Of a stretch of 64,000 nt of DNA, positions 10,310 to 48,029 are shown piece after piece. Each line of letters opens with the position of its first letter. Position 1 is the stretch's first letter. This DNA is from Escherichia coli (GTDB taxonomy: Bacteria > Pseudomonadota > Gammaproteobacteria > Enterobacterales > Enterobacteriaceae): assembly GCF_003334765.1 (NCBI RefSeq), contig NZ_QOWT01000003.1. One strand, written 5' to 3'. The notes under the pieces are model-generated. The model did not search any database and was not told the DNA's origin. It worked only from the letters and a program-made list of their open reading frames with translations. The position numbers and the translations under genes were made by a program.

Positions 10310-11002
10310 ATGAAAACAATTGGTTTGCTGGGAGGAATGAGCTGGGAATCCACCATTCCTTACTATCGTTTGATAAATGAAGGCATTAAACAGCGGCTTG
10401 GTGGGCTTCACTCTGCGCAAGTGCTGCTACATAGCGTCGATTTTCATGAAATAGAAGAGTGCCAGCGTCGCGGGGAATGGGATAAAACCGGGGACATTCT
10501 GGCTGAGGCGGCGCTTGGCTTACAGCGGACGGGCGCAGAAGGTATTGTGTTATGTACCAATACGATGCATAAAGTGGCGGATGCCATTGAGTCACGTTGC
10601 ACTCTGCCTTTCTTACACATTGCGGATGCCACCGGACGTGCAATTACCGGGGCCGGAATGACTCGTGTGGCGCTGCTGGGTACGCGTTACACCATGGAAC
10701 AGGATTTTTATCGCGGGCGGCTGACGGAACAATTTTCCATCAATTGTCTTATTCCTGAAGCGGATGAACGGGCGAAAATTAATCAGATTATTTTTGAAGA
10801 ACTGTGTCTGGGGCAATTTACCGAAGCGTCACGCGCTTATTATGCGCAAGTGATTGCTCGCCTTGCAGAACAGGGCGCACAGGGCGTCATTTTTGGCTGC
10901 ACAGAAATTGGTTTACTGGTGCCAGAAGAGCGCAGTGTTTTGCCTGTGTTTGATACCGCGGCGATCCATGCCGAGGATGCTGTCGCTTTTATGCTGTCGT
11001 AG
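10310..11002 (+). CDS. ygeA: Asp/Glu-racemase-family amino-acid racemase YgeA
   Basis: [16 protein letters not shown]-terminus; 230 aa from ATG 10310; track ORF extends upstream. Confidence 0.85.
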
Positions 11003-13314: not shown

Positions 13315-14346
13315 TTAGTCGCTGGTTGCATGATGACTTGCCTCCAGCGACGGAGTTGACACTGAATGACGACGTACCAGCGTCGGACTAAAGACATTAG
13401 TGATTTCCGGGAGAGGGCGATTATCCGCCAGCGCCAAAGCCAGTTCGGCAGCCTGGGTCGCCATCGTCACGATTGGGTAACGCACGGTGGTCAGGCGCGG
13501 ACGCACATAGCGTGACACCAGCACATCATCAAAGCCAATTAACGAAATCTCACCCGGTACATCAATACCATTATCATTGAGAACGCCCATCGCACCCGCC
13601 GCCATTGAATCGTTATAACAGGCTACCGCAGTGAAATTTCTTCCTCGTCCCAAAAGCTCGGTCATTGCCTGTTCGCCGCCGCTTTCGTCTGGTTCGCCAA
13701 ATGTCACCAGCCGGTCATTGGCCGCAATACCACTTTCAGCAAGGGCATCGTAATACCCTTGCAGACGATCTTCGGCGTCAGAAATAGAGTGGTTAGAGCA
13801 CAGATAACCAATGCGGGTATGACCTTGCTGAATTAAATGACGCGTTGCCAGCCAGGCACCGTAACGATCGTCCAGAGCAATACAACGGTTTTCAAAGCCA
13901 GGCAGGATACGGTTGATCAGCACCATACCGGGCATTTGTTTCATTAATGAGGCTAAATCAGCATCCGGGATCATTTTGGCATGGACGACCAACGCAGCAC
14001 AGCGATGGCGGATCAGTTGCTCAATGGCCTGACGCTCTTTTTGTTCGTTGTGGTAACCGTTGCCAATCAATAAAAAATTACCGGTGTGATAAGCCACCTG
14101 TTCGACCGCTTTCACCATTGCACCGAAAAACGGATCGGAAACATCACCAACGACCAGACCGACCGTTTCAGTGGTCTGCTGCGCCAGCGCACGGGCGTTG
14201 GCGTTCGGGTGATAGCTAAGAGACTCCATTGCACTATGCACAGCCAGCCGGGAAGCTTCGCTGGCTTTGGGTGAATTATTAATGACGCGGGAAACGGTGG
14301 CGACTGAAACGCCTGCCAGTCGGGCTACATCCTTTATGGTCGCCAT
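13315..14346 (-). CDS. galR: galactose repressor GalR (LacI family)
   Basis: 343 aa; N-terminal LacI-type HTH MATIKDVARLAGVSVATVSRVIN. Confidence 0.93.
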   Translation of the reverse strand: MATIKDVARLAGVSVATVSRVINNSPKASEASRLAVHSAMESLSYHPNANARALAQQTTETVGLVVGDVSDPFFGAMVKAVEQVAYHTGNFLLIGNGYHNEQKERQAIEQLIRHRCAALVVHAKMIPDADLASLMKQMPGMVLINRILPGFENRCIALDDRYGAWLATRHLIQQGHTRIGYLCSNHSISDAEDRLQGYYDALAESGIAANDRLVTFGEPDESGGEQAMTELLGRGRNFTAVACYNDSMAAGAMGVLNDNGIDVPGEISLIGFDDVLVSRYVRPRLTTVRYPIVTMATQAAELALALADNRPLPEITNVFSPTLVRRHSVSTPSLEASHHATSD

Positions 14347-14559
14347 GAAAATACCTTAGTGGGTAAACGCTTACATTCTTTCAGTGTTACGGAAAACGCC
14401 CGTTGGTTCAAGGGGTGGCGTGTTTTCATCGTGGGAATGTGAGCCAAACGCAAATAAGTAAGACAAAAAAAGAGATTGCAAACCTTTGGTTACACTTTGC
14501 GAAACGCTGTTGCGATTGACCGCTGGTGGCGTTTGGCTTCAGGTTGCTAAAGTGGTGAT

Positions 14560-14641
14560 CCCAGAGGTATTGATAGGTGAAGTCAACTTCGGGTTGAGCA
14601 CATGAATTACACCAGCCTGCGCAGATGCGCAGGTTTTTTTT
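14560..14641 (+). ncRNA. omrB: Hfq-dependent sRNA OmrB
   Basis: Sequence CCCAGAGGTATTGATAGGTGAAGTCAAC...CTGCGCAGATGCGCAGG plus U-run matches OmrB as I remember it; lies in the galR-aas intergenic region. Confidence 0.85.
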
Positions 14642-14755
14642 GCCGGTCATCAATCTGTAACAGTAACCGACAATTTACACACCTCGTTGCATTTCCCTTC
14701 ATTCCTTTGCGTTTTCTCGCTGGCGAAGAGTCGTCGTGCAGACCACAATCAAGAT

Positions 14756-14843
14756 CCCAGAGGTATTGATTGGTGAGATTATTCGGTACGCTCTTCGTAC
14801 CCTGTCTCTTGCACCAACCTGCGCGGATGCGCAGGTTTTTTTT
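14756..14843 (+). ncRNA. omrA: Hfq-dependent sRNA OmrA
   Basis: CCCAGAGGTATTGATTGGTGAGATTATTCGG...CTGCGCGGATGCGCAGG plus U-run; tandem paralogue of OmrB with shared 5' and 3' ends. Confidence 0.85.
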
Positions 14844-14909
14844 CGCACCTAATTTACTGTCGCTCGCGTTCTTTATCTCGTGTAATCTCCCTCCATTCGC
14901 TTTTACTGA

Positions 14910-18276
<3,367 letters not shown>

Positions 18277-43261: not shown

Positions 43262-43338
<77 letters not shown>

Positions 43339-44680: not shown

Positions 44681-44862
44681 GGGTGAGGGGTAACCTCACA
44701 TCCTGATTATTGACTAAGTGCGCGTTGTTCATGCCGGATGCGGCGTGAACGCCTTATCCGGCCTACAAATCATGCAAATCCAAAATATTGCAGGAGTTAT
44801 GTAGGCCTGATAAGCGTAGCGCATCAGGCATTTATGCGTTTAGGGTGAGGGATAACCTCGCC
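44681..44862. repeat. REP/BIME cluster between mltA and tcdA
   Basis: Two REP palindromes (gccggatgcggcgtgaacgccttatccggcctac at about 44733-44766; gtaggcctgataagcgtagcgcatcaggca at 44801-44830) flanked by direct repeats GGGTGAGGG(G/A)TAACCTC at about 44681 and 44843. Confidence 0.7.
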
Positions 44863-47823: not shown

Positions 47824-48029
47824 AAAAAAAAGCACCGCAATTAGGCGGTGCTACATTAATCACTATGGACAGACAGGGTAAATGTACAGGAAGTGAAAAA
47901 AGGTAGCTTTGCTACCATGGTCTGAATCGCAGACCAATTGCAAACACAACAACACAACATCACAACCGTAAGCCAAAAGTTCACCAGAACACGCATTCCG
48001 ATAAAACTTTTCGTTCCGGCTCAGGAAGT
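47824..48029 (-). ncRNA. gcvB: sRNA GcvB
   Basis: Reverse complement matches GcvB (ACTTCCTGAGCCGGAACGAAAAGTTTTATCGG...GTTGTGATGTTGTGTTGTTGTGTTTGCAATTGG...GCACCGCCTAATTGCGGTGCTTTTTTT); divergent from gcvA. Confidence 0.9.

Follow-up and report, generated by a model that had tools for sequence, protein, structure and literature searches.

Two short and similar segments lie in tandem in the galR-aas intergenic region of the 64-kb stretch of Escherichia coli DNA analyzed here (hereafter, the window), with a Chi octamer just upstream of the first, and the locus raises the question of what the segments are, how they came to resemble each other, and whether the Chi octamer has any bearing on them. 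From the letters alone, the earlier note had named them as the sRNAs OmrB and OmrA, had described them as a tandem duplication with divergence, and had drawn attention to the Chi octamer. OmrA and OmrB have been characterized since 2001-2006 and are textbook sibling sRNAs that tie EnvZ-OmpR to outer-membrane proteins, iron uptake, motility, and biofilm formation.

When the whole window was compared with Rfam 15, two matches to the covariance model RF00079 (OmrA-B) were obtained on the + strand, one at 14560-14641 (86.1 bits, E = 2.3e-15) and the other at 14756-14843 (96.6 bits, E = 6.4e-18), both spanning model positions 1-87 of 87 and both scored against a gathering threshold of 40 bits. The upstream segment was identical base for base to omrB of MG1655 (b4445, 82 nt) and the downstream segment to omrA of MG1655 (b4444, 88 nt). 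The galR-aas intergenic region of 584 bp, bordered by galR on the - strand (at 14346) and by aas on the + strand (from 14931), showed no difference from K-12, and the RefSeq annotation of identical loci agreed with these borders. A search of 5426 complete E. coli genomes recovered the 586-bp intergenic region in 5424, with an identity of at least 99% in 5304 of them. The window as a whole was the reverse complement of MG1655 from approximately 2.927 to 2.991 Mb, from which it differed by about 20 SNPs over 64 kb and one 220-bp deletion, all outside the omr locus; its source is therefore distinct from MG1655, though very closely related to K-12. No evidence against the OmrB/OmrA identification was found in this analysis, and the names, the order (OmrB upstream), the strand, and the ends proposed in the earlier note all agreed with the Rfam scores, the identity to K-12, the galR-aas synteny, and the literature. 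Compared with OmrA/OmrB of K-12 (RygA/RygB, SraE; RF00079), the RNA sequences, the galR/aas flanks, the promoters, and the terminators are all identical here, and the transcript ends and the regulation described below rest on the K-12 annotation and on the cited papers. We are nearly certain that OmrB and OmrA, which are paralogous Hfq-binding sRNAs, are encoded here by two independent genes, each with its own promoter and Rho-independent terminator, that the two originated as tandem duplicates, and that the Chi octamer beside them is an ordinary one. As a discovery this carries little weight, since the pair present here is already known, long characterized, and annotated in K-12, and its mechanism has been published.

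OmrB (82 nt, 14560-14641, + strand) is made up of a 5' pairing region (14560-14580), a variable central hairpin, a terminator hairpin (14614-14635), and a U tail, and the corresponding parts of OmrA (88 nt, 14756-14843, + strand) are a 5' pairing region (14756-14776), a central hairpin (14785-14801), a terminator hairpin (14816-14837), and a U tail; for both RNAs the assignment draws on the Rfam match, the exact match to MG1655, the terminator, and the fold. A terminator scan found a 9-pair GC-rich hairpin followed by T8 at each 3' end, with the T runs located at 14634-14641 and 14836-14843; in the OmrA-B family, such a terminator hairpin and its U tail form the 3' module that binds Hfq. Compared with shuffled sequences, the folds of OmrB and OmrA gave z scores of -2.9 and -2.7, respectively, and in both the 5' end was predicted to be unpaired; this single-stranded 5' end, CCCAGAGGUAUUGAU, was present exactly in OmrB and OmrA. 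The possibility of small ORFs hidden between galR and aas was also considered and was rejected, as those listed were mechanical ORFs of 20-78 aa with neither an ATG nor other support, and as the RNA middles showed indels that were not multiples of three in orthologue alignments.

The 15-mer CCCAGAGGTATTGAT occurred at 14560-14574 and again at 14756-14770, which places the two starts 196 bp apart, and a gap of 114 bp separated OmrB from OmrA on the same strand. At the 5' end, 20 of the first 21 nt were identical between the copies (the best match elsewhere in the 64-kb window was 15/21), and at the 3' end 30 of the last 32 nt were identical; approximately 55-60 nt after each 15-mer, the sequence read CCTGCGC(A/G)GATGCGCAGG and then eight T. 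The central parts (29 and 35 nt) yielded 17 aligned identities. Upstream of the RNAs, a comparison of the promoters from -80 to -17 at an offset of 197 gave 31 identities in 64 positions, a value that just 2 of the 63,808 other window positions attained. The weak in-register likeness of the omrB and omrA promoters reached about -72, and the clearest segment common to both copies was TTGCGnTT...CGCTGG, at about -51 to -34. An ungapped comparison of the promoters at an offset of 196 stayed at chance level (23/80) because the register shifts by one base upstream of about -16, where the correct offset is 197. Thus, in-register similarity was beyond chance and extended outside the RNA modules, as is expected of a tandem duplication, and since the promoters resemble each other in register, the duplicated unit would have contained the promoter, which has since diverged. 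We infer that a unit of ~196 bp, promoter included, was duplicated in tandem to give the pair. This agrees with the description of OmrA and OmrB (88 and 82 nt) as the product of an ancestral duplication with divergence past nt 21 (PMC12692685), and, together with the near-identical 5' and 3' modules, the diverged middle, and the in-register promoters, it upholds the tandem duplication with divergence claimed in the earlier note, whose 196-bp spacing, shared 5' seed, shared 3' terminator, and differing middle were all recovered from the sequence and from the alignment of the two copies. After the duplication, divergence of the promoters and of the central RNA parts may have left the copies answering different signals. 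Sibling sRNAs such as GlmY/GlmZ and Qrr1-5 of Vibrio are likewise duplicated RNAs in which a functional module has been conserved while the promoters diverged, a design that lets one common regulon take several inputs. OmrA and OmrB share both their 5' and 3' modules and are adjacent (~196 bp), whereas most other sibling sRNAs are dispersed in the genome. GlmY/GlmZ are listed among the references of PMC2588501.

Orthologous loci were collected with the exact 15-mer as the search key and one genome per species; approximately 550 chance matches would be expected from 298 Gb by our own estimate, and most of the matches were indeed chance matches in unrelated phyla. The sample thus obtained, which is arbitrary with respect to species and not exhaustive, comprised at least 22 Enterobacterales loci among the matches listed, one of which (L023) was cut by the locus end. 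When Rfam was applied to 21 listed loci, two copies were found in 13 and one copy in 8. The sequence CCCAGAGGUAUUGAU was present in 36 of 36 Rfam matches, of which the window contributed 2 and the 21 listed loci the remaining 34, an invariance of nt 1-15 that is partly a matter of ascertainment because the loci had been collected with this 15-mer. The closing helix GGUG...CACC was invariant in 35 of 35 aligned copies, and three terminator pairs showed compensatory double changes in the same alignment (for example, G-C to A-U in 5 copies and C-G to U-A in 4); the centre could not be aligned between A-type and B-type copies. Spacing within the pair was kept at 191-201 bp in 12 other Enterobacteriaceae loci among the matches listed.

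Other arrangements were seen at individual loci. In Serratia grimesii (locus L043), two copies lay 275 bp apart on the + strand, at 10379-10468 and 10654-10746, with central parts that were identical to each other at 30 of 40 positions and to E. coli OmrA or OmrB at ~23 of 40; S. bockelmannii (locus L057, 12514-12606, + strand) had the downstream Serratia copy only. The Serratia pair points to an independent duplication, or to gene conversion, particular to this lineage. In Pantoea stewartii (locus L026), the OmrA-B genes were located at 2747-2822 and 4789-4879 on the + strand, 2042 bp apart and not ~200 bp, and the upstream gene was short (76 nt), like the single copies of Erwinia and Tatumella.

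To describe the promoters, upstream regions among the matches listed were aligned separately for the two types. In 19 omrB-type promoters, a conserved upstream block, AACCTTTGGTTACACTTTGCG, was found at 14481-14501 on the + strand (about -79 to -59; strong conservation over AACCTTTGGTTACACTTTGC, 14481-14500), and this block corresponds to 'box B2', which carries an OmpR/RstA-type site. It includes a T at -75 (14485) and an A at -68 (14492), the bases that were mutated in PMC13425233, and the match of these positions independently confirms that +1 is 14560. The second block, GCTGTTGCGATTG, at 14506-14518 (+ strand, -54 to -42), was nearly invariant in the 19 promoters and is probably the 'box B1' of PMC13425233, a highly conserved box that was required there for RstA-dependent activation. 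From -41 to -16 the omrB-type promoters were poorly conserved, and this stretch was followed by an extended -10, TGCTAAAGT, at 14545-14553 (+ strand, -15 to -7), conserved as TGnTAnAGT. The -12 position of PomrB is a T (14548), and PMC12692685 describes PomrB with its -12T as sigma-70 dependent.

The 13 omrA-type promoters showed a different set of conserved blocks, all on the + strand between 14655 and 14723: CTGTAACAG at 14655-14663, GTTGCATTT (aligned form GTTGCAyTT) near 14686-14694, TCATTCCTTTGCGTTTTC (aligned form TCATTCCyTTGCGTTTTC) at 14699-14716, and CGCTGG at 14718-14723. Downstream of these lies the omrA -10, CACAAT, at 14744-14749 (+ strand, -12 to -7), where CCACAATCAAGAT was conserved in omrA-type promoters. 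Its -12 position is a C (14744), and it is this -12C that makes omrA sigma-S dependent (PMC12692685). The difference in conserved blocks between omrB and omrA reproduces the pattern reported by Mathis de Fromont et al. (PMC13425233), who counted two conserved boxes for PomrB against four conserved regions for PomrA and who noted that certain species have chimaeras. A scan of 14300-15000 for the sigma-70 consensus detected no promoter, a result to be expected of activator-dependent promoters with a weak -35 and one that does not count as evidence against them. In one complete genome, that of E. coli 300709 (locus L127, 2898-4111), an IS3-family element lay downstream of the omrB terminator and upstream of omrA, at approximately window position 14693, and it cuts omrA off from the majority of the conserved blocks of its upstream promoter region.

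With regard to regulation, OmpR-P activated the omrA and omrB promoters in vitro, each promoter separately, in K-12, with which the sequence here is identical (PMC5175337), and omrB was additionally activated by multicopy RstA (PMC13425233). According to PMC2588501, the conserved 5' end base-pairs close to the ribosome-binding sites of ompT, cirA, and ompR, target repression requires Hfq and RNase E, and a feedback loop results from the repression of ompR-envZ. In the mechanism established by published experiments on an identical sequence, phosphorylated OmpR activates both promoters, with omrA also depending on sigma-S by way of its -12C; the single-stranded nt 1 to ~21 pairs near the ribosome-binding sites of ompT, cirA, fecA, fepA, ompR, csgD, flhDC, and other mRNAs; OmrA and OmrB, together with Hfq and RNase E, repress these target mRNAs; and repression of ompR-envZ establishes a negative feedback loop. 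For nt 1-24 of each RNA, we predicted duplexes with the K-12 ompR leader and with cirA and compared them with those of shuffled seeds. The predicted duplex with ompR, CCCAGAGGU on ACCUUUGGG, lies beside the ompR Shine-Dalgarno sequence and had energies of -19.4 and -19.0 kcal/mol for the two RNAs, which were equalled by 0.7-0.8% of shuffled seeds. The predicted duplex with cirA (-15.9 kcal/mol) was not significant in this comparison, as 9-11% of shuffled seeds were as good; the cirA pairing has been verified genetically (PMC2588501). The omrB box at 14481-14489 (+ strand) contains the 9-mer AACCTTTGG, which is also the OmrA/B pairing site in the ompR leader (GAACCTTTGGGAG); this recurrence is probably a coincidence, given that the copy in the promoter lies upstream of the transcription start.

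The Chi octamer GCTGGTGG was an exact match at 14522-14529 on the + strand, where it occupies positions -38 to -31 in PomrB, overlapping the -35 region, and ends 31 bp before the OmrB start; its placement ~30 bp upstream of OmrB in the earlier note can be read directly from the sequence. The + strand of the window carried eight Chi octamers and the - strand carried none, compared with 2.1 ± 1.4 in shuffled sequences. The + strand is the G-rich strand (GC skew = +0.045) and corresponds to the leading strand of the left replichore (MG1655 2.93-2.99 Mb, reverse), on which Chi is known to be enriched. With approximately 1 Chi per 8 kb, the density in the window is, if anything, lower than the K-12 average of approximately 1 per 4.6 kb. 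The copy at 14522-14529 is thus like the Chi sites of E. coli in having the exact octamer, the strand of the seven other copies, and the G-rich strand, and it is distinguished from other genomic Chi sites solely by its overlap with the -35 of PomrB. The other seven copies, all on the + strand, are located at 17403, 17745, 27172, 29029, 32267, 35118, and 39278; recC, recB, and recD, which encode the Chi-reading enzyme, contain one copy each, and the others lie in lplT (two), ppdA, and ptrA.

Within E. coli, at least 5211 of 5426 genomes (~96%) carried an unaltered 32-mer around Chi, a retention that matches the near-identity of the whole intergenic region. Among the matches listed, 3 of 19 omrB-type promoters carried the full octamer, which falls short of site-specific conservation; at the corresponding position, E. 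albertii had GCTAGTGG, Citrobacter GCTGGTGA, and Enterobacter GATAGCGA. The motif CGCTGG (about -39 to -34) recurred in most omrB-type and omrA-type promoters, and bases 1-5 or 6 of Chi fall in this semi-conserved motif, the last three (TGG) varying freely. In our reading, Chi arose where the conserved CGCTGG happens to precede TGG in E. coli. In the literature searched, no paper linked Chi and omrB. We rejected the idea that Chi is tied to the sRNAs, on the grounds that the octamer is not conserved across species, that eight co-oriented copies are present, and that no paper in the literature searched supports it. The earlier note had assigned no function to Chi, the analysis supports none, and we judge the octamer at 14522-14529 to be incidental, an ordinary co-oriented genomic Chi with no specific connection to the sRNAs. 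From raw sequence, the earlier note had correctly recognized the locus together with its ends as well as the Chi octamer, and Chi requires no special explanation.

Among the other explanations considered, the one that survives best is that GCTGGTGG matters as a -35 or activator-contact element of PomrB and has been selected for transcription rather than as Chi, which we regard as possible but doubtful. Its position over -38 to -31, the recurrence of CGCTGG in promoters of both types, and the inclusion of the -35 among the conserved elements in PMC13425233 all point in this direction. However, just the first 5-6 bases of the octamer are semi-conserved, and the remaining TGG is free to vary. PomrB furthermore carries an extended -10 (TGnTAAAGT), and an extended -10 usually lowers the need for a -35. 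This explanation is compatible with the preferred reading of two independent genes beside an ordinary Chi and does not oppose it.

A second explanation, that Chi acts as a RecBCD hotspot driving unequal exchange between the copies and so accounts for duplication, loss of omrB, and chimaeras, is in our estimation highly improbable. What speaks for it is the location of Chi within the segment common to both promoters (TTGCGnTT...CGCTGG), the junction of a single-copy chimaera from Pseudescherichia vulneris in the same promoter segment, the chimaeras reported in PMC13425233, and the persistence of the octamer in E. coli (at least 96% of the genomes). This persistence, however, is in keeping with the identity of at least 99% seen over the whole intergenic region, and the octamer was missing from 16 of the 19 listed orthologous promoters, including the chimaeric one and that of E. 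albertii. With eight co-oriented Chi at approximately 1 per 8 kb, moreover, a Chi near any given feature is unremarkable. In RecBCD recombination, Chi acts over kilobases and not on the adjacent 200 bp, and no paper in the searched literature ties Chi to omrB. The chimaera itself is the single Omr gene of P. vulneris (locus L055, 421-505, - strand), which combines omrB-type upstream boxes with an omrA-type -10 and an OmrA-type transcript, and its junction falls in the TTGCGnTT...CTGG segment common to both promoters; judged from the sequence, this would fit a deletion through exchange between the copies. An extension of this idea, in which the shared segment from -51 to -34 would be a preferred crossover that repeatedly deletes omrB or makes omrB-promoter/OmrA chimaeras and in which Chi would tune the frequency in E. 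coli, is to be regarded as very improbable as well.

That OmrB and OmrA are processed from one precursor transcribed from the omrB promoter, as their common strand and the gap of 114 bp might allow, can for practical purposes be dismissed in view of the strong terminator after OmrB (9-pair hairpin and T8), the conserved blocks and conserved -10 that omrA has of its own, the separate in vitro transcription from each promoter (PMC5175337), the statement in PMC13425233 that the two are individual transcription units, and the difference in sigma-S dependence between OmrA and OmrB (PMC12692685).

Elsewhere in the window, a single initiator tRNA-Met gene was present at 43262-43338 on the - strand, where MG1655 has three in tandem (metZ, metW, and metV), and the 220-bp deletion relative to MG1655 is located at this site. 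An Rfam match to ES036 (CssrF) was obtained at 44766-44808 on the + strand (46.5 bits), and K-12 coordinates place it in the intergenic stretch that would lie downstream of mltA. A match to GcvB (199 bits) was found at 47824-48029 on the - strand, adjoining gcvA.
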